Below, piece after piece: positions 1 through 20,555 of a DNA stretch of 37,589 nt. The notes under the pieces were generated by a model. The model saw nothing but the letters and a program-made list of their open reading frames with translations, was not told the DNA's origin and made no database searches. Position numbers and translations under genes: made by a program. Position 1 is the stretch's first letter. Each line of letters starts with the position of its first letter. Source of the DNA: Nitrosomonas sp. (GTDB lineage Bacteria; Pseudomonadota; Gammaproteobacteria; Burkholderiales; Nitrosomonadaceae). Where the stretch lies: assembly GCA_021774205.1 (NCBI GenBank), contig JAJFJI010000152.1, positions 1 to 37,589 on the forward strand, given 5' to 3'.

Positions 1-764
1 AAGAAAATAGCAATGACTGCAAGTCCACCAAAAAACCAATGTTCACGTATAATTTCAATAATTATTTTTGGGTGTGCACCATATCTTGACCAAAATGTAG
101 CGTCTGTTTTTAATTTATTTTTTAAAGATAATTCCGCAACATATGAGATAAAATCAACTTTTTTCTGAGTAGATTGATATAGTTTCATATACTCGCCTCT
201 TTCGAAGGCGTCGGCCTCATCGGCTCCGGGTAGAAAAAGTTCGGATTTAATTTCATTTAGATTGCAAAGTGTTGCAAGAACTGGCTTTTTAGCATATTCA
301 ACCCCATAAATATCTTGTAATGTTGATGCTAAATCTACTTTTCTGCTTTCAGGTAGTACTTTTGGTTCCCCACCCAAAACTTGAAATCTATGCTCCAATG
401 CTTGAAATCCGTAATTAATATTTCGCATGTTCCAGTGAGCCCAGTAATAGCTATAGTGGTCTGCTACGAATTTGAAATAATCTTTGAGTAACTCTAATTC
501 TATTTTTTCATATTCATTATCTAATTCTGATGAAGCGACATTGAGTTTCTCAGCATAATGATGTATTGAGAATGAACGAATTTCTCCACTATGGAGATAT
601 CTAATTGCTATTGATGCAATGCGGGGTGACTTACCATCATCTCGTTTAAAAAAACTTTCACAAGAATAGTGGATAATAAGTGATAAATCAGATCTATCAA
701 ACAAATGTTCTAGCTTTTGTTTAGCAGCTTTTTGTTTTTTGAGTCTGTATATTTCTGAGCCCAT
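1..764 (-). CDS. Hypothetical protein, runs off the window edge; possible degenerate DnaQ/RNase H-like fold with a hydrophobic C-terminal segment
   Basis: Not in the ORF track. Manual translation from ATG at 764 gives MGSEIYRLKK...IIHYSCESFF...WAHWNMRNINYGFQALEHRF...EHWFFGGLAVIAIF, open to the window edge. ATG directly abuts the stop of ORF 765-1226. The fold call is a weak inference. Confidence 0.75.
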   Translation of the reverse strand, partial: MGSEIYRLKKQKAAKQKLEHLFDRSDLSLIIHYSCESFFKRDDGKSPRIASIAIRYLHSGEIRSFSIHHYAEKLNVASSELDNEYEKIELELLKDYFKFVADHYSYYWAHWNMRNINYGFQALEHRFQVLGGEPKVLPESRKVDLASTLQDIYGVEYAKKPVLATLCNLNEIKSELFLPGADEADAFERGEYMKLYQSTQKKVDFISYVAELSLKNKLKTDATFWSRYGAHPKIIIEIIREHWFFGGLAVIAIF

Positions 765-1226
765 TTAGGAGTCTATTTGCTTTGTTGTTGATTTCCTAAT
801 TTGCATATTAATCAATATTTTATGCGCTTTCAAAACTTCCCCTTCTAAACTCTCTCTTTCTTCACTATCATTTAGGCGTTCGTTCAAAACAAAAGATAAA
901 GCCGATGCATAGTCACGTTTAAAATCTTTATTTATTTTGTTCCAATTAATATCCTTAAGTATCGATAATTTAGTAAATTCTAAGGGCACCATTTTCTTAT
1001 CTAATAATATTGCAATAATTGGATACCCTAGGGTGTTCTGCCATTTTGATGCATTATCATCTGAATAAAACGTAGTAAACGAATCGTTCCACGCAAGGCT
1101 ATAGAACTTACTTTTATCAGAAGAATATACCTTTGCAGAGTTACTTCCAGTATGCTCTATACGTAAATCAGCCAATACACTAATGGCTTCATAAAGCTTT
1201 TCAATCTTAGGTTTCTTAAAAATCAT
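765..1226 (-). CDS. Hypothetical protein (153 aa), first gene of a two-gene operon
   Basis: Clean ORF with conserved-looking motifs (KLYEAI..LAD.RI, KVYSSD.SKFY, SDDNASKW...LGYPIIA), abutting the downstream ORF. Confidence 0.7.
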   Translation of the reverse strand: MIFKKPKIEKLYEAISVLADLRIEHTGSNSAKVYSSDKSKFYSLAWNDSFTTFYSDDNASKWQNTLGYPIIAILLDKKMVPLEFTKLSILKDINWNKINKDFKRDYASALSFVLNERLNDSEERESLEGEVLKAHKILINMQIRKSTTKQIDS

Positions 1227-1402: not shown

Positions 1403-1527
1403 CTACGCAGCTTGTTTGCCTAAGTCATTACCAGACGACCTTTTGTCATGTATTAGTTTAAAAATTTCTTTACTCTCTACCCTTGACACCTTTTTCAAAG
1501 TTCGAGATCTGTATCGGTATGGCTCAC
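1403..1527 (-). repeat. att-like core copy C (1499-1527) plus an orphan in-frame copy of the LSR1 C-terminus (1403-1498)
   Basis: AGTTCGAGATCTGTATCGGTATGGCTCAC is identical to 6457-6485. The minus strand reads EPYRYRSRT-LKKVSRVESKEIFKLIHDKRSSGNDLGKQAA*. Confidence 0.9.
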
Positions 1528-1808
1528 ATAAGGAGAAATGCTTTTTTTGGTAACATCTCCACTCATACATCATTAATATAAGCCATATTTTGGCAGTCAA
1601 AAGAGCAAATTTTCACTCAAAATTTTGCACCTTAAGGGGACTCGAACTGATCAAATAGCTTTAATTCAGGCTTAAATGTAGTGGTGATGGTAAAGGTAGT
1701 GACGTTTCTTTGTGTTAGGGCTGGAATTGTGTCTTCACGTACTGATATTCCCCGGTAATGATGGCAGGCGACAGTGTATCTTCTTCGCTCCGGTACAGCC
1801 TAAATATG

Positions 1809-1840
1809 CACACTTGAAAAGTGTGTAGATTTGATATACT
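1809..1840 (+). promoter_or_regulatory. Putative gajA promoter (extended -10 TGaTATACT) with an upstream palindrome CACACTT-gaa-AAGTGTG
   Basis: TG-n-TATACT at 1832-1840, 9 nt before the ATG. A 7-bp inverted repeat at 1809-1825 covers a TTGAAA hexamer. Confidence 0.4.
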
Positions 1841-1849
1841 GCTTCTAAT

Positions 1850-3622
1850 ATGAGTGAGATAGTTAATATAAAAAGTATTGAAATACAAAGATTTAGAGGT
1901 TTAGAGAATGTTATTTGGAATCCTGATCCAGGCATGAACATAATCCTAGGAGGCGGTGATTCTGGAAAAACCACAATTCTTGAGGCGATTGGTTTGCTTT
2001 TTAGTCCAGTTAACTCGTTAACCCTTTCGGAAACTGATTTTTGGCAACGAATAAGTGAAGATGAGTTTTGTATTGTTGCCACCATCAGCGTTTCCGATGA
2101 TTTCGAATTTTCATCTGGAACCAAGACATATTGGCCTTGGGAATGGAATGGTCAAAAAGCAGTTCTACCTACAAGTGATTCAGATGAACCAAGTGAGCAA
2201 CAAACTCCAGTCTTCAAGGTTTCTTTAACAGCTAATTCTGATTTTGAACTGTTATGGGAAATCATTCAACCTAACGATGAACGAGAGCATTTTCCAGTAG
2301 GTTTGCGTAGAAAGATTGGAGTTGTAAAACTCACTAGCGAAGATAAAAATGACAGAGATTTACGATTGGTTTACGGGTCTGCACTCGATCGACTACTTTC
2401 TGACAATACTCTTCGGTCTAAGATAGCGCATATAATTTCTCAGTACCCGTTGACGAAATCGCTATCTGAAGATGCAATGAAGTCGCTTAATGACTTGGAT
2501 CAAAAACAAAAAGAGAGAGCTCTTCCTTCGGGTCTCGATCTAGGAATTACTGGCAGCCAAGGAATATCTGTGGGTGCATTAATCTCGTTATTTGCAACAA
2601 AGGACAGTGTAAAACTCCCCTTAACTAACTGGGGTGCTGGTACGCGGCGAATGTCATCATTTGCTATAACTTCTTCTAACGCTGACAATGACGAAATCAT
2701 CTTAATTGACGAGATTGAGCGGGGACTTGAACCATATAGGTTACGTCAATTTATAAACTCTCTCATAGATGAACCAAGGCAATCATTCATAACAACACAT
2801 AGCCCGGTTGCAATTAGTAGTTCGCATAATGCGCAACTTTGGTACCTTGATGCTACTTCGAATATAGGTGCATTAGATAAAAAGACCATCAGACTTCAGC
2901 AGGAACGTGACCCGGAGACGTTCTTGTCAAAGATTCCAATTATTGTTGAAGGACAAACTGAGCAAGGGTTTGTATCAAAAATTTTATGCACCGTGTTTAA
3001 AACTAATCCACAATATTATGGCATTCGTGTATGTTTGGGTCAGGGTGATGATCAGATGTTACCTGTATTGGAGGCACTTTCCAGGACGGGACTGACATTT
3101 GCAGCCTTTGCTGATAATGATGAAAAAAGCTCTGGTAGGTGGGAGAAGGTAAAAGAAGCGATGAATGATAGGCTTTTTCGTTGGGAAAGTGGATGTACTG
3201 AAGCCAACATCATTTCTCTTTTACCAGAAAACTATCTCCCAAAACTTTTTATCGATCCTGATGGAGATTATGATGGATACCGATTACGTACGATTGCCGA
3301 TCGACTTGGAAATACAGAACAAAATATAACAATCGAATCTATTCAAGCTAATATAAATGAACAGAAAAAAAATCTCAGAAAGTTAATCATAGATGCTGCT
3401 ACTGGCAACACGGAAGGTGTCGAAGACAAGTCTACAAAAAAGAGTTGGAAGAAACACTCTCAAAGTTGGTTTAAGAAAGCTGATGGTAGTGGGGGTGCTG
3501 AATTAGTTGATCATCTCTTGTATTCTAGTAGTTGGACCGAGATCGAGCCAAAAATCAGACCATTTTTCAATAATATACTAACACTTGCCGGGCTCAGTCC
3601 AGTCGAAAAAATCAAAATATGA
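1850..3622 (+). CDS. gajA: OLD-family ATP-dependent endonuclease (ABC ATPase + TOPRIM), Gabija GajA-like
   Basis: N-terminal IQRFRGL, Walker A GGGDSGKTT, Walker B ILIDEIE, TTHSP H-loop, TOPRIM IIVEGQTE and DxD (FADND). Coupled to a UvrD-like gene. Confidence 0.85.
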   Translation: MSEIVNIKSIEIQRFRGLENVIWNPDPGMNIILGGGDSGKTTILEAIGLLFSPVNSLTLSETDFWQRISEDEFCIVATISVSDDFEFSSGTKTYWPWEWNGQKAVLPTSDSDEPSEQQTPVFKVSLTANSDFELLWEIIQPNDEREHFPVGLRRKIGVVKLTSEDKNDRDLRLVYGSALDRLLSDNTLRSKIAHIISQYPLTKSLSEDAMKSLNDLDQKQKERALPSGLDLGITGSQGISVGALISLFATKDSVKLPLTNWGAGTRRMSSFAITSSNADNDEIILIDEIERGLEPYRLRQFINSLIDEPRQSFITTHSPVAISSSHNAQLWYLDATSNIGALDKKTIRLQQERDPETFLSKIPIIVEGQTEQGFVSKILCTVFKTNPQYYGIRVCLGQGDDQMLPVLEALSRTGLTFAAFADNDEKSSGRWEKVKEAMNDRLFRWESGCTEANIISLLPENYLPKLFIDPDGDYDGYRLRTIADRLGNTEQNITIESIQANINEQKKNLRKLIIDAATGNTEGVEDKSTKKSWKKHSQSWFKKADGSGGAELVDHLLYSSSWTEIEPKIRPFFNNILTLAGLSPVEKIKI

Positions 3623-5142
3623 CTGATGCCGAGGTAGAGGAATTGCTTCGTTCTGATGCACCAATAGTTGTAATCGAAGCGCCAGCTGGTTGTGGCAAAA
3701 CTTATCAAGCTGCCAATTACGCGGAGCATGCGGCCAAACAGCTAAATATAGGTCAAGTATTAGTTTTAACGCACACACATGCTGCTTGTTCAGTGATTGC
3801 TGAACGCACAAAAGAAATCAAGAAAAAAGTACGAATTCAAACTCTTGACAGCCTGATTAATCAAATTGCATCAATGTATCGAAAAACACTCGGATTACCA
3901 GAGGATGTGGCTGACTGGGCTCGTCATAACGGATACGAAACATTAGCTGAGAAAGTTTCTCTTCTTATGTGCGTAAATCCAATGTTATGCAAACATGTCA
4001 CCAAACTCTATCCAATCATTATTTGTGATGAACACCAAGATTCTAGTGAACATCAAGATAAGATTGTCAGAGCTATAAGTAAACAAGGAGCATTTCTTCG
4101 TATTTTCGGAGACCCAATACAAATTATTGGAGGAGGATCAAATCAAAAAAAGTTAGCTGGTGAAGCTTTGGCTAGATGGCGCAAGTTACTAACAACAAGT
4201 AAATTCGGTCATCTCGAAACTCCACACCGCTGGCTAAATTCGTCACCAGAACTAGGGTTGTGGATACAACAAGCAAGAATATCACTCGAAAAGAATGGGT
4301 TCATTGATCTTGAAAGCCAAAGACCATTAGGTTTAAACATTACAATGGCTGAAAATGTATCTCCATCTGCTCAACGTTATTTATTACGCCCTAATAATAG
4401 TAAGGAGCTTTCATCCTCGATAGAGAATGGACAAACAGCCCTTTATATAGCAGGAAAGAAAGCAACAGTAGAACATATTCATAGCTATTTTGGAAGACGA
4501 TTTCCAATCTGGGAAGGACATACACGACCCGCTCTTGAAAGTTTTATTGACCTTGTTACCTGTGATATTGAACTACATAAAAAGGTTAATGGGTATTTGG
4601 ATTTTCTCAATAAAATTTTGACGGGATTTACTCGTTCCAAGTATGGAAAACGCTTAGATGAAGAGGTTAAGTCTTTGCATTTTAATCCTAGAGGAGATAT
4701 ACCCCCTGAGTTGCACTACATGGCCATTATGATTATAAAAAACCCTAACCATATCGGTTTTGCTCAAGCAACATCACATCTCAAAACATTGATAATAAAT
4801 AAAGCCAAAGGTTTTGATGCTATACATATTAAGTATCCAACAGAACTTACCGATTTAATCAAACTAAAGTCATTCAGTGATGCTAAACAAGGTTATGCGG
4901 ATTTAAGTCAGCGACGATCACGTGCGCACCCAAAGCCGCCATCAAAAGCCGCTAGTACCATACACAAATCAAAAGGACTTGAAGCTGAAAGTGTTGTCAT
5001 TTTTGGATGTGATGCAAATCATTTTGGAAATTCTCAAACAAAGAAGAATCTTCTGTATGTAGCTTTAAGTAGACCTACTCATACTCTTACCTTGGTTCTC
5101 TCACGAGACAATCCTTCTCCACTTATCAAATATAATGGTTGA
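3619..5142 (+). CDS. gajB: UvrD/Rep-like SF1 helicase, Gabija GajB-like
   Basis: APAGCGKT, LTHT, CDEHQD, FGDPIQ, STIHKSKGLE and LYVALSR motifs. Short (507 aa). ATGA overlap with the OLD nuclease gene. Confidence 0.85.
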   Translation: MTDAEVEELLRSDAPIVVIEAPAGCGKTYQAANYAEHAAKQLNIGQVLVLTHTHAACSVIAERTKEIKKKVRIQTLDSLINQIASMYRKTLGLPEDVADWARHNGYETLAEKVSLLMCVNPMLCKHVTKLYPIIICDEHQDSSEHQDKIVRAISKQGAFLRIFGDPIQIIGGGSNQKKLAGEALARWRKLLTTSKFGHLETPHRWLNSSPELGLWIQQARISLEKNGFIDLESQRPLGLNITMAENVSPSAQRYLLRPNNSKELSSSIENGQTALYIAGKKATVEHIHSYFGRRFPIWEGHTRPALESFIDLVTCDIELHKKVNGYLDFLNKILTGFTRSKYGKRLDEEVKSLHFNPRGDIPPELHYMAIMIIKNPNHIGFAQATSHLKTLIINKAKGFDAIHIKYPTELTDLIKLKSFSDAKQGYADLSQRRSRAHPKPPSKAASTIHKSKGLEAESVVIFGCDANHFGNSQTKKNLLYVALSRPTHTLTLVLSRDNPSPLIKYNG

Positions 5143-5304
5143 CAATTAACTTATTAGAAAATAGAAGAAAATTAAACAGGACAAAGAGGTAATTTTTAGA
5201 CTGTTGCCCTCAATTCAACAGATTCTATCAATCAATTTAGAAAATTATCGATCCTTGAGAGATTTCAATTTTTTGAGAGTATATTTAAAGACTAACAAAC
5301 AATA

Positions 5305-5429
5305 TTACGCAACTTTTTTACTTGAAGGATCGCTGCTTGGTTCTTTGTCATGTATCAATCTAAATATTTTTTTCGAATTGTTACCGGGTTTAGCGTCAAA
5401 AGTTCGAGATCTGTATCGGTATGGTTCAC
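5305..5429 (-). repeat. att-like core copy B (5401-5429) plus an orphan in-frame copy of the LSR1 C-terminus (5305-5400)
   Basis: AGTTCGAGATCTGTATCGGTATGGTTCAC matches the other copies at 28/29. The minus strand reads EPYRYRSRT-FDAKPGNNSKKIFRLIHDKEPSSDPSSKKVA*. Confidence 0.9.
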
Positions 5430-5496
5430 AACGGACAGATAATTTGCCACCAGTGCAAATTTTCACTCCACCAATTACCAAGGCACAAAAATAACC

Positions 5497-5524
5497 TTGA
5501 CATAACAGGGATCTATATTAAAGT
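5497..5524 (+). promoter_or_regulatory. Putative sigma70 promoter for ORF 5608
   Basis: TTGACA (5497-5502), 16-bp spacer, TAAAGT (5519-5524). Confidence 0.55.
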
Positions 5525-5537
5525 TGCATGTAGATAT

Positions 5538-5608
5538 TGTTGATTTTCCTCTATGTCCACAGCTGATTGAATGTTCGATCAACTGCATTATGTAGAGGAG
5601 AGTTAATA
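5538..5608 (+). promoter_or_regulatory. 5'-UTR hairpin occluding the RBS and start of ORF 5608
   Basis: 5538-5556 pairs with 5590-5608 over 19 contiguous pairs, 6 of them G-U, covering GAGGAG and the A of ATG. An inner stem CAGCTGATTGAA/TTCGATCAACTG is also present. Confidence 0.65.
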
Positions 5609-6237
5609 TGGAGTACGAAATAAAACTGGTTCCTTTAGAAATTACCCCACCATCGATTGAATCGCTCGATCCTGATCGTAGAAAAGACTTTTATGCTCGA
5701 CGACTCGGTATTGAATCATATAAAGCTACTTTCCCTTTGGTAATTAACAACATTCCAGAAGATGAGATGTTTCATAATACAGAAAGCTTTACTATGAGGT
5801 TAATGCGGAGGTCTATTTTTGATAAAAGTTACATTGCACAAAATGTAGCGATGGACGAGGTTGATAATCTTGAGAGTTTTATTTGGCAAGCATTCACAGA
5901 TGAAATCATTACTCAGGATAAATTCTATAGATATCTAAAACAGATTCCCTATCAAGTACTTGAACATTGTGATACTGCTAACAACACTGGAGTATTTACA
6001 ACCTTCGAAATCTGGCGAAATAGAGAGTATGATTTTTGGTTTCTTGTCGGCTGCATTGGTTTTAAAGATTATGTTATCGCCGAGTGGCAGTCAACTAAGA
6101 ATAATCCTCTTATTAATTTTGATTCAGTAATTGCTTGGGTTGAGGAAGGTAAATATCCAACTGACTGTATAATTGATAGTGGTGTGTTTTTTTATAAACA
6201 TATCGCAAATTCCTTAAAGAATAAGCGGAAGAAGTAA
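5608..6237 (+). CDS. Hypothetical protein (209 aa), sole cargo of the LSR1-proximal unit
   Basis: ORF with a strong RBS (AGAGGAG), its own promoter and a terminator. No recognised domain. Confidence 0.8.
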   Translation: MEYEIKLVPLEITPPSIESLDPDRRKDFYARRLGIESYKATFPLVINNIPEDEMFHNTESFTMRLMRRSIFDKSYIAQNVAMDEVDNLESFIWQAFTDEIITQDKFYRYLKQIPYQVLEHCDTANNTGVFTTFEIWRNREYDFWFLVGCIGFKDYVIAEWQSTKNNPLINFDSVIAWVEEGKYPTDCIIDSGVFFYKHIANSLKNKRKK

Positions 6238-6246
6238 TTCTTTACA

Positions 6247-6280
6247 AAAAAGCCATCACCTAAGCAAATGATGGCTTTTC
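6247..6280. terminator. Probable bidirectional intrinsic terminator between ORF 5608 and LSR1
   Basis: AAAAGCCATCA-N10-TGATGGCTTTT between convergent genes. Confidence 0.7.
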
Positions 6281-6360
6281 ATTTATCTACATAGTTTGGC
6301 AATATCTCCCCCTTACTAATTCCCTGCCTACTTTGTGAGAACATGGATATATACACTAAC

Positions 6361-7914
6361 TTACGCAGCTCGTTTACCCAGAACGTCGTCTGAGGGTTCT
6401 TTATCGTGTATGAGATCAAATAATTTTGCTAAAGAATTCTTTGGTTTCCTGTTATCAGTTCGAGATCTGTATCGGTATGGCTCACCATAACGTAATTTGT
6501 CGTCATTTGCGACTGCCTGAAATGGTTTTTTCAGAGTAAACACAAGCTTTTTTCCATCAACACAGAAGTTCGAGGTAACTGATTTCACCAATTCCCTATT
6601 TTCATTCCGATTGGCCAAAATACTGTTGCTAGATATAGCTTTTACCAGTTCGAGGAATTTTTGTGTCTTTTGGTCGTTTTCGGCAACTTGAGACTGTATT
6701 TCTTCCATTGATTCTTTGGCTTGTAGTCGTTCGTGGAGTAATTTCTGTTTCCGAGTGTCGAAAGTTTCTTTATCTATCATGCGATCAATGTATGCATCAG
6801 TAAGGCGGGTTATTCTGGCATCGATATTGGTAAGGTTAAGCTCGGCTGCTTTTAGTAACTCATCGTGGCGTTTAAATCTTTCTGATTGAAGATAAGATAA
6901 TTCGGCTTCCAGTATTTTAATTTCGTCACTAGACAGTAATAGTTTATCCAGCACCGCTTGCATCTGAGCATCAATCACGTCTTCTCGAACACAGGCTCTG
7001 GGGCAGTCTCTTGTTTGGCAACGATAATAGACAATTCCCTTTTGACGTTCGGCGATGAGGTTATAGTGGCAGTGCAGGCACCGCAGTGTCTTGCGATACC
7101 GAAATTCGTGCTTTAGTCCAGTATTTTTCGTTCTGCCGCGCAGAATATCCTGCACACGATCAAACTGCTCTTTTTTGATGAGTGGCTCATGGATACCCTG
7201 GTAACGTTCACCTGTCGATACTATATGCATTATGCCAATATAGAATTCATTTCCGAGCATTGTCGAAAGACCATTTCGTGAGACTCGATTCCCACGACGA
7301 TTACGTAACCCCGCTTGGTGCATTTCTTCACCCAGGGTATACAGGTTGTATTGGCTAGTGGCATATAATTGAAAAGCTTTTTGTACCAGTGGGGCCATGA
7401 TTGGATCAGGTAGCTTGGGCAATCCCCGGCCTTGATCGATATACCCGAGTGGTGCACGCAGAGGATAAAGTCCTTGCCTCAGTCTACCCAGAAAACCTTT
7501 TTTAACTTCGTCACGGAGGTTACGGATAAAATCAGCTGCCACTACTGCTTGTATATCAGCGGCCAAACGTCCGCCACGCGATTGCAAATCTAGGCTCTCG
7601 TGCGCAAAGTGAATTTCGATTCCTTTGTCAATTAATGAGCCGAGATCAGCCCAGTCTTTAAGATTTCTGGCTCCCCGATCAATTTTATGAATTATTACCC
7701 CATCCGCTTTACCTTTAACCAGCAACCTAAGCATAGTAGTAAAAATAGTGCGACCCCGTTTAGCTGCCGTCTCCTTTTCTTCAAACCATTCCCTGATGCA
7801 TAAATTATGACGTTTGGCGTAGTTTTCTATGGCGAAACGTTGCTCTGTTAATGATGAACCATGTTCACCTTGTTTGATTGTAGATACTCTGATGTATGCA
7901 TAAACATATTTCAT
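6361..7914 (-). CDS. Large serine recombinase LSR1 (resolvase + recombinase + Zn ribbon + coiled coil)
   Basis: YIRVST catalytic Ser motif, KIDRGARN, APLGY, HEPLI, CxxC...YYRC...C Zn ribbon, coiled coil. Confidence 0.95.
   Translation of the reverse strand: MKYVYAYIRVSTIKQGEHGSSLTEQRFAIENYAKRHNLCIREWFEEKETAAKRGRTIFTTMLRLLVKGKADGVIIHKIDRGARNLKDWADLGSLIDKGIEIHFAHESLDLQSRGGRLAADIQAVVAADFIRNLRDEVKKGFLGRLRQGLYPLRAPLGYIDQGRGLPKLPDPIMAPLVQKAFQLYATSQYNLYTLGEEMHQAGLRNRRGNRVSRNGLSTMLGNEFYIGIMHIVSTGERYQGIHEPLIKKEQFDRVQDILRGRTKNTGLKHEFRYRKTLRCLHCHYNLIAERQKGIVYYRCQTRDCPRACVREDVIDAQMQAVLDKLLLSSDEIKILEAELSYLQSERFKRHDELLKAAELNLTNIDARITRLTDAYIDRMIDKETFDTRKQKLLHERLQAKESMEEIQSQVAENDQKTQKFLELVKAISSNSILANRNENRELVKSVTSNFCVDGKKLVFTLKKPFQAVANDDKLRYGEPYRYRSRTDNRKPKNSLAKLFDLIHDKEPSDDVLGKRAA
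6457..6492. repeat. att-like core copy A, inside the LSR1 coding sequence
   Basis: 29-bp core at 6457-6485. The dyad CGGTATGG-ctca-CCATAACG (7/8 symmetric) is centred at 6482/6483, at the edge of the identity shared between copies. Confidence 0.8.
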
Positions 7915-8135
7915 AATGGGTCTTTATTAGACTCATTAACTCTATCATTTATTACAGGAATGTCACATATCTCGTCCAGTCTATTTTCTGCTTCCAGACG
8001 GAGAAATATTCGATAAATCACACCTAAATACTCACGAAAGTTAACTGTCGCTTCTTTCAGTTCTTCCTCGCTGGCATCAGGCATCCAGTGCCGTACAATC
8101 TCAGCGATTTCTGGGATGTTTTTGTTTTCTTTCAT
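7911..8135 (-). CDS. Small hypothetical protein coupled to LSR1 (candidate directionality or accessory factor)
   Basis: 74 aa with an ATGA overlap onto the LSR1 start. Function inferred from position only. Confidence 0.65.
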   Translation of the reverse strand: MKENKNIPEIAEIVRHWMPDASEEELKEATVNFREYLGVIYRIFLRLEAENRLDEICDIPVINDRVNESNKDPL

Positions 8136-8242: not shown

Positions 8243-9559
8243 ATGAAAAACAAAGCGACTAAATTGAAAAAAGTGGTATCCGAATGCTTAGCTGATAGAA
8301 CAATTATTGAAACCGTCTACGATATACAAACAAAACAAACAGCCCTGGCTTATTTGAAGGAAGGCAATATTTCAATTAATTCCTCATACGAATCTTCAGA
8401 GGAAGAGAGACTAGAGCCAATTCCCGCCAGCAATAATCTCATCAAGCATGGAGTCGTAGTTTTTGCAGAAAATCCTGAATTCTATGAGTCGGTCGAACAG
8501 CTCATAAACGACATCCAGTCATACATTTATAGATATGTAGATGTGTCAGACCACTTTCGCAAGATCGCCAGCTACTACATCCTCCTGACCTGGATATACG
8601 ATGCTTTCAATGAACTTCCCTATCTTCGGCTGCGTGGTGATTTTGGTTCTGGAAAGACACGAGCACTTTTTGTGATTGGCTCTCTTTGCAATAAGGCATT
8701 CTTTGCCAGTGGGGCTTCAACGGTATCCCCGATCTTCCATACCCTTGATACTTTTAGAGGGACACTCATCTTCGACGAAGCAGACTTCCGCTTCAGTGAC
8801 GAAAAGAGCGAGTTAGTGAAAATTTTCAACAATGGTAACGTCAAAGGATTCCCTGTCCTGCGTACCGCAATGACAATCAAACGAGAGTTTAATCCGCAGG
8901 CATTCAATGTCTATGGCCCCAAGATCGTTGCCATGCGTAAGGCCTTTGAAGACTCGGCACTAGAAAGCCGGTTTCTGACGGAAGAAATGGGTCAAAGCAG
9001 CTTGAGACCTGATATTCCTATTAACCTCCCTGATGTCCAGAAGGATGAGGCAATAGCGCTCAGGAATCAGCTTCTCATGTATCGATTTAAGATGCTTCCT
9101 GCCATCAAGATCGATGAATCATTAATTGATCCTTCACTTTCTCCACGTCTTAATCAAATACTTATTCCGCTACTATCAATTATTGATGATGAAAGACTAA
9201 GAAATGGCATTCGCGAAGCGGTACGTTCGTTTGATCAGAAGCTTTACGCTGAGCGGTCGGCGTCAATGGAGGCAGGGGTGCTTGAAATAATTCAGGAGCT
9301 GTATAAACAAGGCCGAGAAGGTTCTATTGCGGTTTCAGAAATTACTGCTAATTTTATCGGTCGATTTGCCACCGAGTATCAGCGTCCAATAACGACGAGA
9401 ATTATTGGTGGTGTTCTGCGAAAGCGGTTGCGTCTTCTCACATACAAAAGCCACGGAGTGTATGTATTGCCTATCACTGAAAAATCAAAAATTGCAGAGC
9501 TTTCTATCAGATATGGTGTGGTTGATCGTATAGACGAAGAAAAACCGACGTCCGGGTAG
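8243..9559 (+). CDS. P-loop NTPase, probable replication helicase-like protein of a mobile element
   Basis: Walker A GDFGSGKT, Walker B LIFDEAD, ALESRF Arg-finger-like motif, C-terminal wHTH-like region. Followed by ori-like repeats. Confidence 0.7.
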   Translation: MKNKATKLKKVVSECLADRTIIETVYDIQTKQTALAYLKEGNISINSSYESSEEERLEPIPASNNLIKHGVVVFAENPEFYESVEQLINDIQSYIYRYVDVSDHFRKIASYYILLTWIYDAFNELPYLRLRGDFGSGKTRALFVIGSLCNKAFFASGASTVSPIFHTLDTFRGTLIFDEADFRFSDEKSELVKIFNNGNVKGFPVLRTAMTIKREFNPQAFNVYGPKIVAMRKAFEDSALESRFLTEEMGQSSLRPDIPINLPDVQKDEAIALRNQLLMYRFKMLPAIKIDESLIDPSLSPRLNQILIPLLSIIDDERLRNGIREAVRSFDQKLYAERSASMEAGVLEIIQELYKQGREGSIAVSEITANFIGRFATEYQRPITTRIIGGVLRKRLRLLTYKSHGVYVLPITEKSKIAELSIRYGVVDRIDEEKPTSG

Positions 9560-9690
9560 ACTTGGGGACTTGGGGACGTAAATAACGGATATCAGGAAAC
9601 TGGTATCCGTTATTTCCATGGCTTTGCTAATTAATGATTATATTAATCTCTACATTCTCTGCTTCGTCCCCACGTCCCCAAGTCTACCCG
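9553..9690. repeat. Nested inverted repeats, putative replication origin
   Basis: 26-bp IR at 9553-9578 and 9665-9690 (25/26 match, each arm with two TGGGGAC units), enclosing a hairpin at 9580-9615 (GAAA loop) and an AT-rich stretch. Confidence 0.7.
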
Positions 9691-9789
9691 CGTTATCCCC
9701 AGCGGAAACTTTTCACCACTACTCCAATATGCTAGCACGCGTGACAATGGTAATGCTTCTGCTTAATAACCACAGAAGCAATATATTCC

Positions 9790-10161
9790 ATGAGAAAGAA
9801 TAAAGATAAACCCGCCTTGTGCTACTTGCGCACGCACAGGCGCAATTGGGGTCTTACCCAAAAAGAACTTGCCAAGTTGGTCGGTACGGCAAGTAGTGTG
9901 CAGATTAGCCGCTATGAAAACGGCAAACGCGCCCCCAAAATTGAGGTCGCGCTTGCTTGCCAGGTCATTTTCGGGGTTCCCCCGTCGATCATGTTTCCAG
10001 ACACCTACGCCTTGGCCGAGGAAGAGGTCATGCGGAATATGTATCGAATGGACGAGGCGCTCAGCAACACTATCAGTCTTTCGGGATTACGCAAACGTGA
10101 GTTGTTCACAATCGCATTGAAACGTGCTTTAGACGTATCCCATTCATGCAAAAAAGTATGA
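9790..10161 (+). CDS. Xre/Cro-family HTH transcriptional regulator
   Basis: LRTHRRNWGLTQKELAKLVG...QISRYENGKRAP HTH_3 signature. Confidence 0.9.
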   Translation: MRKNKDKPALCYLRTHRRNWGLTQKELAKLVGTASSVQISRYENGKRAPKIEVALACQVIFGVPPSIMFPDTYALAEEEVMRNMYRMDEALSNTISLSGLRKRELFTIALKRALDVSHSCKKV

Positions 10162-10691
10162 GTGTTGTTTCTCAAGAGAACTTGATTCTCGCAATCTATC
10201 CTTTCAGTCGTGGCTTTGCATTTGTTTTGTTTGAAGGCCCAGAAAGCCCATTTGACTGGGGTGTGAAAGAAATCAAAGAAAAACACCGGAATATTAAAAC
10301 ACTCGAAGCGATTAAGGAATTGATTGATCGCTATTGCCCGGAAGCAATTGTCATTGAGGATACTAGTGATCGTTCTTGTAGGAGATCTTCTCGTATAAAG
10401 AAGCTCTACCGCATGCTCACTCACTTAGCTACAGCCGAACATGTTGATCTATATCGTTTTCCTAATACGTCCGTTAAACAGTACTTTGCTGTTGTCGGCG
10501 CAGTTACCAAGTATGAAATCGCTCAAGCTATTGGATTGCAGATACCTGCCTTTAGTCACAGACTGCCAAGAGTACGTAAACCTTGGATGAGTGCTGATCC
10601 GCGGCAAAGTTTGTTTGATGCAGCTGCGCTTGGTCTTGTTTTCTATGGGAGTAGGGGGATACCAAGTCCTTTTGATGCTGACTCAGCATAG
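10146..10691 (+). CDS. RuvC/RNase H-fold-like protein, first catalytic Asp apparently replaced
   Basis: ILAIYP..RGFAFVLFE, PEAIVIE, KYEIAQAI and FDAAALGL parallel the RuvC pattern ILGIDP..G, P..AIE, K..V...V, DALAIA. The true start may be ATG 10158. Confidence 0.6.
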   Translation: MQKSMSVVSQENLILAIYPFSRGFAFVLFEGPESPFDWGVKEIKEKHRNIKTLEAIKELIDRYCPEAIVIEDTSDRSCRRSSRIKKLYRMLTHLATAEHVDLYRFPNTSVKQYFAVVGAVTKYEIAQAIGLQIPAFSHRLPRVRKPWMSADPRQSLFDAAALGLVFYGSRGIPSPFDADSA

Positions 10692-10759
10692 TTAAAAATT
10701 TTCCTTGTCATCGAGGAGTACCGAATTTCCGGTATTCCTCACGTGACAAGGAGGAAATT

Positions 10760-11677
10760 ATGCGTAACAAAGCATTAGGTAGTATCAAGGCAGATATTTA
10801 CACCAAGATCACCAACGAAATTATTAGTGCCATTGAAGCTGGTACGGCTGATTTTGAAATGCCCTGGCATAAACAGGCGCATGCTGGTGTGCCACGCAAT
10901 CCGGTAACGAAAAAGTTATATCGTGGAATTAACACATTGACACTGTGGATTGCTGGTCGGAAAGAAGGATACGCCAGCTCACGTTGGGCATCGTACTTGC
11001 AGTGGAAATCGCTGGGAGCGCAGGTGCGACAAGGAGAGAAAGGTTCAACCATTATCTTCTATAAGCGGGAGGAGGAAGATGAAAATTCTGAAGAGGAGGA
11101 GACACAGAATCAGGCGAGAGCAGTGATTCGCTATTCCCATGTTTTTAATGGGGATCAGGTGGAGGGATGGTCGGCAGATGAATCATCTGGTACGGTAAAT
11201 CATACCAAATTCGCCAAGGCTGTTTGCTTTATTAATTCGCTTGGAAGTGATATTCGACACGGAAGCGACACTGCTTATTATAGTCCAGCCTTGGATCGTA
11301 TTTTTATGCCGGACCAATCGGTTTTTCGCGATACAAATTCAGGGTCAGCTACTGAAAGCTATTTTTCCGTGCTTTTCCATGAGCATATTCATTGGTCTGG
11401 CCATTCTGCACGGCTCAGTCGTGATTTATCTGGAAGATTCGGATCAAGCAGCTATGCCATGGAGGAATTAGTGGCCGAGCTTGGTGCTTCATTTCTTTGC
11501 GCTGCGCTTGATATCAACACGTATCCGAGACCAGACCATGCTGCGTACATTGCCAGCTGGCTTAAAGTGCTCAAAGAGCACAAATCAGCGATCTTTGTGG
11601 CTGCTAGTGCGGCCTCAGTGGCAAGTCAGTTCTTGGAGTCCTTGGTTACGCAAAGCAGTATTGAAAAGACTGCATGA
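10760..11677 (+). CDS. ardC: ArdC-family antirestriction / ssDNA-binding protein with a zincin-like domain
   Basis: MPW, YRGIN, W..Y.QW...GAQVR.GEKG, VFN..Q, HE.IHWSGH..RL.R, YA.EELVAELGA.FL, HAAYIASWL. Confidence 0.92.
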   Translation: MRNKALGSIKADIYTKITNEIISAIEAGTADFEMPWHKQAHAGVPRNPVTKKLYRGINTLTLWIAGRKEGYASSRWASYLQWKSLGAQVRQGEKGSTIIFYKREEEDENSEEEETQNQARAVIRYSHVFNGDQVEGWSADESSGTVNHTKFAKAVCFINSLGSDIRHGSDTAYYSPALDRIFMPDQSVFRDTNSGSATESYFSVLFHEHIHWSGHSARLSRDLSGRFGSSSYAMEELVAELGASFLCAALDINTYPRPDHAAYIASWLKVLKEHKSAIFVAASAASVASQFLESLVTQSSIEKTA

Positions 11678-11854: not shown

Positions 11855-11882
11855 TTGCAATTTATGTGCAGTATCATATACT
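11855..11882 (+). promoter_or_regulatory. Putative promoter of the RM operon (probably leaderless)
   Basis: TTGCAA-16 bp-TATACT ends 7 nt before ATG 11890, with no SD. Confidence 0.45.
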
Positions 11883-11889
11883 CATGTAT

Positions 11890-12474
11890 ATGAAATTAAA
11901 AGAAATTGCCACTGTTATCGCCGGATACACCTTCCGAGGTGCTATTAATCCGGACAAAAGTGGCAACCTTTTTGTATTTCAAGCCAAGGATCTGGTTCAA
12001 GGCGAATTCGTGACTGATGTGACCGCTCTTACACCAATTACTCTGGACACCGTTGGCTATAATGGTTATCTCAAGACGGACGATGTGCTTATTGTTGCGC
12101 GAGGAATGAAAGCGAGAGCATTTCGATCGACGATATTCAAATCTGATGCATCGAACGTTATTACATCATCATCGGTGCATATTATCCGCATCACTGCTCC
12201 TGGCGTATTGCCCGAGTACGTTTCGCATTACTTTAATTCAAAAAAAGGACAAAGCTCGCTGTCGGAGATTGTCACAGGCTCATACATAGGGGTGCTTCCC
12301 CGTCGGGCGTTTGAACAGTTGGAAATACCGGCACCCGATATACGGGAGCAAAAAATAATCACTGACCTTTATCGCAATATGCAAACGCAACAGAAAATAT
12401 TGAATCGGAGGAATGAATTGAAGCAACAAATACTCGACGCAACCTTTACAAACATAACAAGACACCATGACTAA
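11890..12474 (+). CDS. Half-size (single-TRD) type I RM specificity-subunit-like protein
   Basis: MKLKEIATVIAG start, DDVLIVARG, VLPEYVSHYFNS, LEIPAPDIREQ conserved-region motifs. Overlaps the hsdM start. Confidence 0.75.
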   Translation: MKLKEIATVIAGYTFRGAINPDKSGNLFVFQAKDLVQGEFVTDVTALTPITLDTVGYNGYLKTDDVLIVARGMKARAFRSTIFKSDASNVITSSSVHIIRITAPGVLPEYVSHYFNSKKGQSSLSEIVTGSYIGVLPRRAFEQLEIPAPDIREQKIITDLYRNMQTQQKILNRRNELKQQILDATFTNITRHHD

Positions 12475-13975
12475 AAAATTCACTCAGGAAGAACTCAATA
12501 AAATCCTCTGGGCTGCTGCCGATTCGTCTCGCAGTCAGTTGGCGGCTGAAACGTACAAGGACTACGTTTTGCCGATGTTGTTTTTTAAGTACCTGAGTGA
12601 TCAGAATAAGAAAAAGTATAACGAGTACAAGGAGCGCTTTGGAAACAATGAAAAGCGTATCGAGGAGAAGATGAAACTCGATCGCTTCTATCTCCCCCCA
12701 AAATCATCATTCGATTATATCTACAGCAAAATTGAAGAGGACAACATAGGAGATGAAATAAACAAAGCGCTGCGTCGCATTGAAGATGCAAACGGTGAAA
12801 AACTCGAAGGTGTCTTTAGTGTTGATTTCAACTCTGAGTCGGTGCTTGGTAAGTTGACACAGCGTAACAAAATGCTTCGCCACCTTATTCAGGACTTTGC
12901 AAAGATTGACCTTTCGGATGTGGGTGACGACATCATCGGTAACTCATACATGTACATGATTGAACGCTTTGGTGCTGATGCTGGCAAAAAAGCCGGTGAA
13001 TTTTTCACGGTTCGTTCGGTGGCTCAGCTGGTTGCTATGCTTGCTGAACCAAAGAAGGGTGATCGTATCTGTGATCCAGCCTGTGGCTCGGGGGGTCTCC
13101 TCCTCTTGGCAGGTGAAGAAGTGGAAAAGAAAGGCTCAAACAACTATGCGCTCTACGGCCAAGAATCGACAGGCTCTACATTTCAGCTTGCTCGTATGAA
13201 TATGTTTCTGCACGGAAAGGATTCGGCACGTCTTGAATGGGGTGATTCGCTCAATAATCCACTCCTCGTTGAGAGTGACCAGCTGATGCGCTTTGACGTC
13301 GTCGTAGCTAATCCCCCATTCTCGCTTAAGAAATGGGGCGCAGAACACGCGGAATCAGACACATACAATCGCTTTTGGCGAGGAGTTCCACCAAAAGACA
13401 AAGGAGACTTTGCTTTTATTACGCACATGATCGAAACCGCAAAGCCAAAAACTGGACGTGTGGCAGTCATCGTTCCGCATGGCGTACTCTTCCGCGGTGG
13501 AGTTGAAGGCAAGATTCGTGAACAATTGATCAAGGAAAATATCGTTGAGGCAGTAATCGGCCTACCGGCAGGGCTCTTTCAAACCACAGGTATTCCCGTT
13601 GCAATCCTTGTTCTTGACCGCTCCCGAGAAAAAGGCGGTGTCAATGAAAAGAAAAAAGACATCTTCTTTATTGAAGCGTCGAAGGAGTTCAAGTCAGCCA
13701 AAGCGCAAAACATTCTCACCGATGAGTATATCGAAAAGATTCACGCTACCTACCTGAAGCGAAAGGATGTAGAGAAATTTGCTCGCAAGGTAGATCCTGC
13801 TGAGATTGAAGAGAATGACTACAATCTCAACATCACACGGTATGTTGATACGTTTGAGGAAGAGACACCAGTCGATATCAGTGCGAATCTCAAGGAACTT
13901 GCTGAACTCGATCCAGAACTACAGAAGCTTGAGAAGCAGATGGCCGAATACTTAAAAGAGCTAGGGATCAAATAA
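12467..13975 (+). CDS. hsdM: Type I RM methyltransferase subunit M
   Basis: GEFFT, DPACGSGG SAM-binding motif, NPPF catalytic motif, PHGVLFRGG, YNLNITRYV. Confidence 0.97.
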   Translation: MTKKFTQEELNKILWAAADSSRSQLAAETYKDYVLPMLFFKYLSDQNKKKYNEYKERFGNNEKRIEEKMKLDRFYLPPKSSFDYIYSKIEEDNIGDEINKALRRIEDANGEKLEGVFSVDFNSESVLGKLTQRNKMLRHLIQDFAKIDLSDVGDDIIGNSYMYMIERFGADAGKKAGEFFTVRSVAQLVAMLAEPKKGDRICDPACGSGGLLLLAGEEVEKKGSNNYALYGQESTGSTFQLARMNMFLHGKDSARLEWGDSLNNPLLVESDQLMRFDVVVANPPFSLKKWGAEHAESDTYNRFWRGVPPKDKGDFAFITHMIETAKPKTGRVAVIVPHGVLFRGGVEGKIREQLIKENIVEAVIGLPAGLFQTTGIPVAILVLDRSREKGGVNEKKKDIFFIEASKEFKSAKAQNILTDEYIEKIHATYLKRKDVEKFARKVDPAEIEENDYNLNITRYVDTFEEETPVDISANLKELAELDPELQKLEKQMAEYLKELGIK

Positions 13976-13981
13976 TTAATT

Positions 13982-14854
13982 ATGAGTGTTTCCACAAAAT
14001 TTCAAAATTTTTGTTCAAATATTCGCATTAAATCTAATGTGGCTGGTGATATTTCGTATAGATATAAAAGAATGACGAAGCAGCTGAACAAAGATTTTTG
14101 GGATACGGAATCTGATACGAGTCACAGCTTGTATGTTGGTTCATACGGGCGTGACACAGAGGTAGGTGTGAGCGATATCGATATGTTGTTTCAATTACCT
14201 TACTCAAAGTACCAACAATACAATGGTTACGCAGGAAATGGACAATCCGCTCTTCTGCAGGAGGTAAAAAAGTCGATTGAGAAAACTTACTCAGTTACAA
14301 AGCTTGGCGCTGATGGACAAGTTATCGTCGTGCCATTTACCGACGGAATAGTGTTTGAAGTTGTCCCAGCATTTGTAAATAAAGACGGGAGCTTCACTTA
14401 TCCTGATACGAATGATGGGGGGAAATGGCGCTCAACGAACCCAAAACCAGAAATTGAGGCTATACGTAAAGTCAATTCTGAAACGAATGATAATCTGAAG
14501 AACCTTTGCAGAATGATGCGCGTATGGAGAGATAAATGGGATGTGCCAATGGGAGGTTTGCTGATTGATACACTAGCATATCAGTTTATAAAGGGATGGG
14601 AGTATCGAACAAGTTCATACACCTATTATGATTGGATGACACGTGACTTTTTTGATTACTTAAAGAATCAGGACTCAACCAAAAGTTATTGGTTGGCTCC
14701 TGGTAGTGGTCAGTACGTTTGGCGAAAAGGTAATTTTGAATACAAAGCAACACGTTGTTGTAACATCGCTAAAGAAGCTATCGATTATGAGGTACAGAAG
14801 ATGTCCTATTCGGCCGACAGTAAGTGGAGGGAAATTTATGGGTCAAAATTTTAA
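13982..14854 (+). CDS. SMODS / cGAS-DncV-like nucleotidyltransferase (CD-NTase-like)
   Basis: VGSYGRDT...SDIDML Pol-beta motif, third acidic residue in FEVVPAF, W..TNP, LCRMMRVWRD. Adjacent to a SLATT gene. Confidence 0.9.
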   Translation: MSVSTKFQNFCSNIRIKSNVAGDISYRYKRMTKQLNKDFWDTESDTSHSLYVGSYGRDTEVGVSDIDMLFQLPYSKYQQYNGYAGNGQSALLQEVKKSIEKTYSVTKLGADGQVIVVPFTDGIVFEVVPAFVNKDGSFTYPDTNDGGKWRSTNPKPEIEAIRKVNSETNDNLKNLCRMMRVWRDKWDVPMGGLLIDTLAYQFIKGWEYRTSSYTYYDWMTRDFFDYLKNQDSTKSYWLAPGSGQYVWRKGNFEYKATRCCNIAKEAIDYEVQKMSYSADSKWREIYGSKF

Positions 14855-14857
14855 TAT

Positions 14858-15429
14858 ATGGATATAAAGAATCTTTCAATAATTAGACAATCATTCGCAA
14901 GTACAGTGTTTACACACAAGGTTCAAGAAATTGCAGCTGAAAATCAAGAAAGCAAAGTCTTTATTGTAAAAATCATGAACGTACTACTTGTTTCAACTGT
15001 GCTAATACTTCTAGTTATTCAGGTATCTCATCCAGAAAATCTTATATTTACCTATATTGGTGCAGGTATTACGGTTGCAGAAATTATCTTCCTCATAATT
15101 CAGCTATCTTTTAACTTCGAGCAACGAGTGGTTGCTCACAAAAATTCTGCATTAAAGTACATGGGGTTACGAGATGCTTACAGGTCTTTGATTGCCGATG
15201 TAATGAATGAGAATATCTCTGGTGCTGAAATTGATACACGAAGAGATCTTTTGCAGCGAGAGTATCAAATTATTAGTGATCTTGCTCCTCAAACAAGCAG
15301 TAAAGAATACACAGAAGCACAAATGAGGCTTAATAAGCGAGGCGCTGTGTTTGAGAAGAATTTACTTGGTCAGATGAAGAGATAGACAGATTCCTACCAG
15401 AAGCTCTAAGAATAAAAAATGAAAAATAG
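14858..15429 (+). CDS. SLATT-family 2TM effector, apparently frameshifted near 15350-15354
   Basis: FTHKVQE, two TM helices, HK.SA.KY..LRD.Y.SLIAD, APQT. The typical tail EEFTWSDEEIDRFLPEALR lies in the -1 frame (stop 15427-15429); the annotated frame stops at 15385. Confidence 0.8.
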
Positions 15430-16648: not shown

Positions 16649-16654
16649 ACTATC

Positions 16655-19843: not shown

Positions 19844-20555
19844 AAATCAAAAAGAATTTATTTTTGGCTCATTCGTCTACTGCTACGATCTCATTTGCCA
19901 AGACAGAAAAACACTTAACCTGACCGTCACGCCTGACATGCGTATTTGTGTAAAGTGCCCACACGATACTGCTCCCGATAGAATAGAACAGTTTCTCAAA
20001 CGTAAGTGGTACTGGCTACAAAAGCAACTGCATTTCTTTGGAAAGCATCAACGAAGGACCTATACAAAAGAATATGTGTCGGGAGAAAGTTTTCACTATT
20101 TGGGTCGTCAACACCAGCTACTTGTTAAGCAAGGTTCTGATGACAAGGTAGCGTTATTACGTGGCGTACTATTGGTGCAAACAACTAAATCCGTCACAAA
20201 TAGTACATATACTAAAAAGTTGCTAACCAACTGGTTTAATAAAAAAAGAAACAAAGTCTTCGCTGATCGTTTTGATGTGATGAAGGAGAGGTTTGACTAT
20301 AAACAAATGCCGACACTGTCAATAAGAGACATGAAGAAACGTTGGGGTAGTTTTATTAGTAAAGAAAAAATTGTCTTACATCCTAAACTAATTCACGTTT
20401 CAAAAGACTGTATTGACTATGTAATTGTTCATGAACTATGTCATATGCGGTATAAAAACCACGATAAAAAATTTTTTGCTTTTCTAAATGAGAAGTATCC
20501 TGGGTGGGAGAATAAAAAAGAAAAACTTGAGTTGCTCGGTGTTCATGTTCTTTAA
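19827..20555 (+). CDS. YgjP/M48-like (DUF45) metal-dependent hydrolase, commonly found after hsdR
   Basis: GESFHYLGR, MKKRWGS, IDYVIVHELCH (HExxH), NH...F. ATG 19827 chosen over TTG 19812. Confidence 0.9.
   Translation: MKSSPKNQKEFIFGSFVYCYDLICQDRKTLNLTVTPDMRICVKCPHDTAPDRIEQFLKRKWYWLQKQLHFFGKHQRRTYTKEYVSGESFHYLGRQHQLLVKQGSDDKVALLRGVLLVQTTKSVTNSTYTKKLLTNWFNKKRNKVFADRFDVMKERFDYKQMPTLSIRDMKKRWGSFISKEKIVLHPKLIHVSKDCIDYVIVHELCHMRYKNHDKKFFAFLNEKYPGWENKKEKLELLGVHVL

Follow-up and report, generated by a model that had tools for sequence, protein, structure and literature searches.

The stretch of DNA analysed here, hereafter the window, is a contig of 37,589 nucleotides from Nitrosomonas sp. (GCA_021774205.1, JAJFJI010000152.1). 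It carries a gene for a large serine recombinase (LSR), LSR1, and beside it a stack of small units, each of which opens with a copy of the LSR1 3′ end (Table 1). The copies begin with a 30-bp core that occurs three times, always on the minus strand, at 6457, 5401 and 1499 (spacings of 1056 and 3902 bp). Pairwise, the cores agree at 28, 29 and 29 of 30 bases; on the tail side the next 96 bases are identical at 50-55 of 96 positions between copies, and on the opposite side 9-12 of 40 bases are. Read in the direction of the LSR gene, each core opens a 41-codon frame resembling the LSR1 C-terminus, and all three tails encode LSR C-termini with the same stop. Tail C matches the C-terminus of the homologue P0004 at 40 of 41 residues, though the body of P0004 is 83% identical to LSR1. 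No further core copy lies elsewhere in the 2.49-Mb assembly, whether scanned with up to 6 mismatches or with a family profile. The initial annotation of this DNA had described three direct cores bounding units of 1056 and 3902 bp, unit heads copied from the LSR1 3′ end, and two complete units without a recombinase, one holding a Gabija-like pair; all of this holds.

Unit B contains GajA (ATPase and TOPRIM domains) adjoining GajB (UvrD-like helicase), the layout of a Gabija system, for which an anti-phage role is predicted. Neither complete unit of the window includes a recombinase or backbone gene. The 209-amino-acid (aa) open reading frame (ORF) of unit A has no match in Pfam, PADLOC, PHROG, NCBIfam or the atlas. 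A promoter and terminator had been claimed for this unit; it has a TTGACA site at 5497 and a visible hairpin at 6248-6279, but promoter-like sites occur at chance level (18 observed vs 19.0 expected) and the scan did not call the hairpin, so we drop the claim. The third unit does run off the contig end, as first described: the window is the entire contig, in an assembly of 374 contigs, and the far end of the unit therefore falls outside the assembly. Its 254-aa ORF matches phrog_8766 (function unknown). In relatives, what follows the last core continues into island backbone, so this third unit may not be a free cassette.

Table 1. Features of the window, by position (a dot marks a feature without strand).
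Feature	Position	Strand	Remark
Third unit ORFs	3..1226	-	153 aa; 254 aa, open at contig end
Orphan tail C	1403-1498	-	40/41 residues as in the C-terminus of homologue P0004
Core C	1499..1528	-	most likely crossover 1526-1527
Unit B, 3902 bp	1528..5429	-	core arm, orphan tail B, Gabija pair, end module
End module of unit B (class X1)	1528..1651	.	inverted tRNA-end mimic, motif 1642-1647
GajA (ATPase + TOPRIM)	1850..3622	+	PADLOC GajA 3e-76; Pfam AAA_15, OLD-like TOPRIM
GajB (UvrD-like helicase)	3619..5142	+	PADLOC GajB 1.5e-47
Orphan tail B	5305-5400	-	within unit B
Core B	5401..5430	-	most likely crossover 5428-5429
Unit A, 1056 bp	5430..6485	-	core arm, tail A, 209-aa ORF, end arm
209-aa ORF of unit A	5608..6237	+	no family found
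LSR1, large serine recombinase, 517 aa	6361..7914	-	codons 477-517 beyond the likely crossover
Tail A	6361-6456	-	end of LSR1, within unit A
Core A	6457..6486	-	intact attP-type site within LSR1; most likely crossover AC at 6484-6485
Accessory outer-motif copy	6568..6573	-	87 bases before site; second copy 6648-6653
74-aa partner ORF	7911..8135	-	predicted recombination directionality factor
Island backbone	8243..11677	+	438-aa ORF, helix-turn-helix ORF, 181-aa RuvC-like ORF (weak), ArdC
Type I restriction-modification genes	11866..20555	+	with inserted cyclase and SLATT pair
LSR2, second serine recombinase	23213..24991	+	reads across junction into comM
Host comM (yifB) 5′ part	24760..25812	-	TIGR00368 positions 1-349 of 499

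To place the array in its family, we took the best 80 of 402 related genome loci, of which 77 could be mapped at the site (loci and genomes are cited by L and G numbers). In 71 of these, none titled Patescibacteria, the site within the LSR gene is intact, with some record titles looking doubtful; the other six are joined to tRNAs, as described below. A profile scan, window included, gave 29 extra cores downstream of the LSR, 4 upstream and 0 on the opposite strand, against 2 cores in 2.86 Mb of shuffled DNA. A second core is present in 17 of the 71 intact-site loci (14 of the 57 with at least 5 kb downstream), and 54 have none within the sequence at hand. Repeated LSR 3′ ends with differing cargo, expected at homologous loci by the initial annotation, are thus found there. 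A pattern scan of metagenomes added 71 loci, and in a quick tree both arrays and tRNA-joined forms are scattered. These data bear on the trivial explanation of an assembly artefact or chance repeat. The assembly is fragmented and public runs cover the window stretch at a depth of only about 2-4 (four runs, contigs); however, the copies differ in tail and flank, junction B is bridged by a contig from a separate public run (X3, 5268-5647), and the layout recurs in many unrelated assemblies with cores far above the shuffled background. We consider an artefact very improbable, and by these comparisons it is refuted as a general explanation.

The family contains 53 distinct complete units of 0.45-11.3 kb (median 1.6 kb). 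No LSR is present in 51 of them, the other 2 hold a shortened form of 340 aa, and none of the 53 matches replication-like, coupling or other backbone genes. Decayed recombinase or replication genes in the units, which the initial annotation had held would count against its reading, are therefore seen for the recombinase (2/53) and not for replication (0/53). The 340-aa serine recombinase within units (L003 11654-12673, L101 1818-2837, also L115 and L144) is 52% identical to LSR1 across its first 319 residues and stops before the coiled coil. Among 52 units scanned for defence genes (the 11-kb unit excluded, 3 without a called ORF), 14 have a PADLOC match at E <=1e-15 (raw count), including Gabija, SIR2-HerA, SoFic, PifA and PDC-M49, and toxin-antitoxin units resembling ParDE or MazF account for another 5; cargo ORFs lie on both strands. 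A viral origin was rejected, with 1 locus in viral contigs by protein and 0 by pattern; plasmid records gave 1 match, at 44%.

Units also change places. In 7 cross-locus pairs the same unit sits behind the LSR at one locus and at an internal junction at the other, with the likeness beginning at the core. Across 16 pairs (7 clusters) with LSR 3′ ends at least 85% identical, the first cargo is unrelated in all, a count made after identical sites were merged, which hides same-cargo pairs such as L045/L050. As had been proposed, then, variation is concentrated at the first position and defence genes are common cargo. The orphan tails stay open for at least 30 codons in 66 of 69 cases, compared with 14 and 12 in the other frames, and carry silent and replacement changes at 669:614 (98:113 in attached tails). 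Open, without a start of their own and changing at the same ratio as attached tails, they serve, or served until recently, as the enzyme's end.

LSR1 itself has Pfam matches to Resolvase (3e-23), Recombinase (3e-13) and a zinc ribbon (0.0024, below the Pfam cut-off), and S11 and four cysteines are invariant across 40 homologues. With a catalytic serine, recombinase domain, zinc ribbon and coiled coil, it has the predicted make-up of a large serine recombinase. At E 1e-30 it was found in 0 of 40 other close-relative genomes. A relative of the adjoining 74-aa ORF lies directly upstream of 67 of the 77 LSR genes, and homologues occur inside 13 of the 53 complete units, often just before the junction. 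When the 74-aa partner was modelled with LSR1 residues 140-490, the complex scored 0.69 vs 0.02 for the best control; the mark applied is reached by 116 of 157 solved pairs and 2 of 215 mismatched pairs. Contacts agreed at 77% between runs, the partner's model confidence (pLDDT) was at least 70, and the predicted interface, LSR1 331-342 and 419-471, falls where the coiled coil meets the zinc domain, the place at which verified directionality factors are also predicted to bind (PMC12286644). The modelling points to the partner as a predicted directionality factor that would bind LSR1. As structures of integrases with such factors exist, likeness to them may contribute to the score; a PDB fold search with the 74-aa model gave no match.

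The target of the LSR1 family became apparent from the six remaining loci, all titled Patescibacteria. Here the reading frame of the LSR gene continues into a tRNA on the opposite strand (three Glu, one Arg, one Leu and one uncalled at a contig end; ARAGORN called the tRNA in 5), and by comparison the joining of site and tRNA replaces the last 41 LSR codons with tRNA read-through. No transfer-messenger RNA (tmRNA) gene was called in 83 loci, against tRNAs at 5 junctions. At L021 and L073, a matching core and tail lie 7.8 and 4.3 kb upstream. The outer motif, TCGAAC, begins at position 23 of the element arm, 6 bases further from the crossover than in the tRNA arm, where it forms the T-loop and begins at position 17. 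In attachment (att) sites, attP arms have the outer motif shifted by 4-5 bases relative to attB arms (PMC11722253). The 6-base right-arm shift, together with a near-invariant GT, fits this attP/attB distinction, with left arms weakly defined. We read the core as an attP-type arm that mimics a tRNA 3′ end, making the tRNA 3′ end the apparent target of the family. At position 1 of the site, 94/94 LSR-resident sites and 74/75 other junctions have a G, in contrast to the variable position 0. This makes the GT of positions 1-2, complementary to the tRNA discriminator and first C, the most likely crossover. The dyad that had been taken for the crossover is displaced by this: AC, the window's plus-strand reading, lies two bases from the dyad centre, and identity starts there.

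The site is also conserved beyond its coding function. Silent positions are kept, with arginine codon CGA in 89/94 sites vs ~15% elsewhere; 86/94 LSR-resident sites have an accessory copy of the motif 87 bases upstream, its codon being TCG in 90/94 vs about 21% of serine codons elsewhere. Some junctions are irregular. At L008 (11429-11548 and 14922-15041) each core has a second copy 90 bp away within the tail; at L073, 3566 and 7087 have a common host-side flank, followed by a tRNA-like arm at one and an element arm at the other; and three damaged junctions (L109 4812, L125 11727, L101 5130) show an end module fused to a tail without a core, or a shortened core.

The far end of many units carries a structure of its own. 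An inverted mimic of the tRNA end lies 114-140 bases before the core at 25/74 non-LSR junctions and 0/94 LSR-resident sites (background 60/5461), and 11/74 cassette arms have the forward motif of the LSR 3′ end instead; these counts come from a re-classification in which a few divergent LSR ends are still among the non-LSR junctions. The class X1 module that ends unit B also precedes cores in L003, L084, L097, L101, L102, L109, L115 and L146, with other cargo. End modules recur next to unrelated cargo and across LSRs about 50% identical; in arrays they adjoin the next core, and in the recombinase-free L118, L142 and L087 they adjoin a tRNA. By this distribution the end module appears to belong to the cassette, and we suggest that it is an accessory binding site. 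The mirrored motif has attB spacing in 6/75 cassette arms and attP spacing in 0/75, a hint that the cassette end arm may be attB-type. The window spacer folds with z -1.4, and 13 of 23 folded spacers reach z <= -2.5 through a central hairpin that excludes the crossover. Inversion at the inverted mimic was rejected: opposite-strand cores number 0 in genome and metagenome loci, none of 12 pairs with shared cargo differs in orientation, and the mimic shows no conserved central dinucleotide. Empty element-borne attB modules were likewise rejected, with 3 weak forward mimics vs 2 in shuffles and none as a module. A GCAAATTTTCACTC stretch is common to the ends of units A (5455-5468) and B (1605-1618), and a GGNGGAAATGTTGCC-like motif occurs 50-70 bases past many tail stops and in end modules; both are possible sites for another protein.

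In the window, the array rides as cargo on an island with its own recombinase, LSR2, in comM. The island boundary lies near 24760, where likeness to a relative's comM ends; the window comM is 82% identical to a Nitrosomonas record, and its C-terminal domain, expected at the island's other end, is absent from the assembly. Backbone gene order is kept in G041-G045 at 65-85% identity. The same backbone lies within comM in G042, G043, G044, G045, G046, G055 and G059, and past the array G042, G043, G044 and G055 carry coupling-protein-like ATPases and the other part of comM. G059 has extra comM C-terminal pieces upstream of the island, which suggests serial insertion at comM. The tRNA 3′-end target, the tRNA-borne units and the comM island with its second LSR were all missed by the initial annotation.

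Units without a recombinase run straight up to a tRNA at L087, L099, L118, L120, L142 and L143. Patescibacteria show the other side of this system. On G041 (594 kb, titled Saccharibacteria) the same two-LSR island recurs in permuted order, with 72-89% protein identity to the window and G043; here LSR1 is joined to tRNA-Glu(ttc) and LSR2 is not joined to comM. At 96 kb from this island, a recombinase-free stack of two units lies at tRNA-Glu(ctc) and ends in a module class also found in the Nitrosomonas array. On these arrangements, a single island family appears to insert by one system in one host group and by another in a second, a reading that rests on one assembly (G041). Lack of comM is not why Patescibacteria islands use tRNAs, as full-length comM is present in 4/4 tested. 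Small tRNA-joined elements without the island backbone also exist (G060, G048), the one in G060 having about 61% G+C in a 45% genome. That contrast, and the placement of tRNA-joined LSRs among LSRs of other phyla in the quick tree, suggests uptake by Patescibacteria from other bacteria.

Taken together, we lean slightly towards a model in which the stack consists of recombinase-free cassettes that the LSR1 family likely moves and that were probably stacked and picked up at tRNA 3′ ends. An island circle would recombine its intact site (P, P′) with a tRNA end that already bears a unit (B.P′-cargo-X.B′, with X the end arm). Later excision would use the outermost junction pair, likely with the 74-aa partner as directionality factor, so that the departing circle takes along the resident unit, now fused directly to the LSR gene; the tail of that unit would complete the gene, and older units would be pushed outward. 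Excision at an inner junction would instead drop units at the tRNA. If X is attB-type, all of these would be ordinary attP x attB or attL x attR steps, and free cassette circles would not be required. In the case at hand, LSR2 would then have inserted the loaded island into comM with the array as cargo, and units at comM may be lost by recombination between cores or tails. Such pick-up at tRNAs gives the polarity that the initial annotation had proposed, and the array is likely an integron-like gene store.

Several observations weigh against this model. Outside Patescibacteria, the site is joined to a tRNA at 0 of the 71 intact-site loci; to be loaded, an island would therefore have to pass through Patescibacteria. 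In 13 non-Patescibacteria genomes with the pattern, cores lie in the island only, apart from one stray match with 2 mismatches. The left end of the G041 island is a truncated LSR plus core and not a clean host junction. A motif cannot be read in most left arms, and a single module class accounts for 5 of the 6 attB-spaced cases. Finally, in four Alphaproteobacteria genomes with an identical LSR (99-100% around the LSR), 0, 0, 1 and 3 units are present, and unless these differences are losses, passage through Patescibacteria would be unparsimonious here.

That Alphaproteobacteria series is central to a rival reading, a true serine integron, in which circles excise and insert directly at the LSR-resident site in an ordinary host and tRNA insertion is a side use. 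We hold this to be possible but doubtful. The accessory motifs and a cassette-borne partner would license a reaction between two sites with attP-type arms, and several patterns speak for this reading: the LSR1-type site is never a chromosomal junction in 71/71 non-Patescibacteria loci, yet its silent-position motif (CGA 89/94) is conserved; the dedicated end module recurs across cargo and distant LSRs, and the partner gene is in 13/53 units; and unrelated first cargo follows near-identical LSR 3′ ends in all 16 pairs. Two genomes of the series have syntenic flanks, the distal unit is the one kept in the one-unit form, and in the empty form the sequence changes over to the variant of the last core within the first 14 core bases. 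Ccr LSRs, moreover, excise tandem cassettes one at a time as well as in every combination (PMC11470126). Against this, the pairing is non-canonical under the arm rules (PMC11722253), the merging of identical sites hides same-cargo pairs, a second core is missing from the available sequence of 54 of the 71 intact-site loci, and the nested series fits proximal loss equally well, with one mosaic tail as a sign of homologous exchange. For the 0, 0, 1, 3 series, gain and loss both fit. Of the serine integron-like array first proposed, the recombination site in the LSR 3′ end and the modular units stand, and direct insertion, which would need a reaction between two attP-type arms, is the doubtful part. 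The boldest version is tentative: LSR1, aided by its partner, would exchange gene-sized defence cassettes at the site within the LSR1 gene and so rewrite the C-terminus of the enzyme each time, while a widespread two-recombinase island would ferry the pool to and fro, with tRNA depots in Patescibacteria at one end and the comM gene of free-living bacteria at the other.

A second alternative is that the units are fossils, remnants of serially inserted elements that lack an LSR and are no longer substrates, their differences arising by homologous recombination between tails. Such decay has been described for cis-mobilizable elements (CIMEs; PMC5704250) and for ssrA islands (PMC3146451). The shortened LSR in 2/53 units and the partner gene in 13/53, often just before the junction, point to descent from mini-elements; the forward LSR 3′-end motif kept in 11/74 cassette arms and the left end of G041, a truncated LSR and then a core, agree. 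However, junctions are base-exact in 74/75, replication-like or coupling genes are in 0/53 units, the orphan tails are under coding constraint, and 7 locus pairs hold the same unit in changed position. We regard the fossil explanation as unlikely; decay probably explains the origin of the units and not their present state.

Other features of the island deserve mention. The 438-aa ORF (8243-9559), P-loop-like, is conserved beside LSR1 across phyla at 46-80% identity and has no Pfam, PHROG or NCBIfam match. Just past it, at 9553-9690, lies a 26-bp inverted repeat with GGGGAC units, a possible origin or binding site; GTCCCC units similarly follow the tails in the Alphaproteobacteria series. Between hsdM and hsdS, a SMODS cyclase (PADLOC 2.5e-142) and a SLATT gene (13982-15385) form a minimal pair resembling a cyclic-oligonucleotide-based antiphage signalling system (CBASS). 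A 391-aa ORF, which we take from its look to be an IS4-type transposase, lies between 25-bp inverted repeats at 20740-22081, and an 18-bp tandem repeat (37202-37345) lies inside the last ORF of the window.

The central question raised by these arrays is whether units are exchanged directly or picked up at tRNAs. They would offer a route by which a serine recombinase packages single defence genes, reorders them and moves them across phyla. As the repeat marks each unit, the units form a ready list of candidate anti-phage genes. Two insertion systems in one island family would give a handle on gene flow between Patescibacteria and other bacteria, and an LSR aimed at several kinds of tRNA end, with a candidate directionality factor and accessory sites, could serve as a tool.

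Integrons, with IntI, attI and attC, keep small variable cassettes in a direct array beside the recombinase gene; their first position is the most variable, and many cassettes are defence and toxin-antitoxin genes. The arrays described here are alike in their small variable cassettes stacked beside a recombinase gene, their varying first position and their defence and toxin-antitoxin cargo. They differ in that the enzyme is a serine and not an IntI tyrosine recombinase, that the repeat would be a double-strand LSR arm and not an attC hairpin, and that cargo genes face both ways and are not co-oriented promoterless cassettes read from Pc.

Among tyrosine enzymes, the 'suicidal' integrases of the spindle-shaped virus (SSV) type also have attP within the gene, target tRNAs and form hybrids by tandem insertion (Badel et al., 2020, PMC7253208). 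Their split destroys the enzyme, whereas 476 of the 517 LSR1 residues would stay together. The outer island with LSR2 is of a common kind, as comM (Mg-chelatase-like) is targeted by 12.4% of predicted site-specific integrases (Durrant et al., 2022, PMC10083194); the tRNA-targeting LSR with its cassette stack appears to be extra, and the word 'tRNA' has 0 occurrences in the main text of that paper. A literature search over mainly open-access main texts gave no publication on the LSR1 family, on cassettes of gene size that bear a tail, or on an island with two recombinases directed at tRNAs and comM; relatives could be present in the LSR tables of PMC10083194 and PMC12286644.

Three systems come closer. 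CIMEs, which belong to the accretion and mobilisation of ICE/IME tandems, lack an enzyme but keep att sites; an element that arrives beside them takes them up and carries them along when it excises (PMC5704250). Our units likewise keep att sites, 51/53 have no LSR and none has backbone transfer genes; such accretion and mobilisation would be the model we favour, with mobilisation in cis suggested by G041 and the shared units. CIMEs, as described there, are decayed and mainly of tyrosine integrases, unlike the serine enzyme, C-terminus exchange and dedicated end structure seen here. In staphylococci, Ccr LSRs excise tandem defence cassettes, and staphylococcal cassette chromosomes (SCC) and SCC-like elements carry many anti-phage systems (Hossain et al., 2024, PMC11470126). 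Both systems have tandem cassettes that lack a recombinase and lie between att sites of an LSR; SCC as described are 17-48 kb, anchored at rlmH and have the site outside ccr, whereas the targets here would be tRNAs and comM. LSR1 scores 59 bits against CcrB (cut-off 900) and falls outside Ccr.

In the Dehalococcoides ssrA islands, dsiB, encoding the LSR DsiB, overlaps the att site at its 3′ end and takes its stop from the next tandem island or the RNA gene, and 15 islands lack the integration module (McMurdie et al., 2011, PMC3146451). In these islands, as here, an LSR 3′ end that overlaps att is completed by its neighbour and the target would be the 3′ end of a stable RNA. In that account the target is tmRNA, unlike the several kinds of tRNA targeted here. 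Our units are, further, gene-sized, with a conserved end module and often a partner gene; most arrays ride on an island that a different enzyme inserted elsewhere, and do not end in an RNA gene; and the backbone consists of genes other than the dsiA-recF-parB-mom module, for which no direct search was made. With dsiB islands (PMC3146451) and Ccr cassettes (PMC11470126) as forerunners, the initial annotation's claim that no such system had been described was too strong. Staphylococcal SCC and the Dehalococcoides ssrA islands are the published precedents, and by this comparison the Nitrosomonas array is best regarded as a variant of these.

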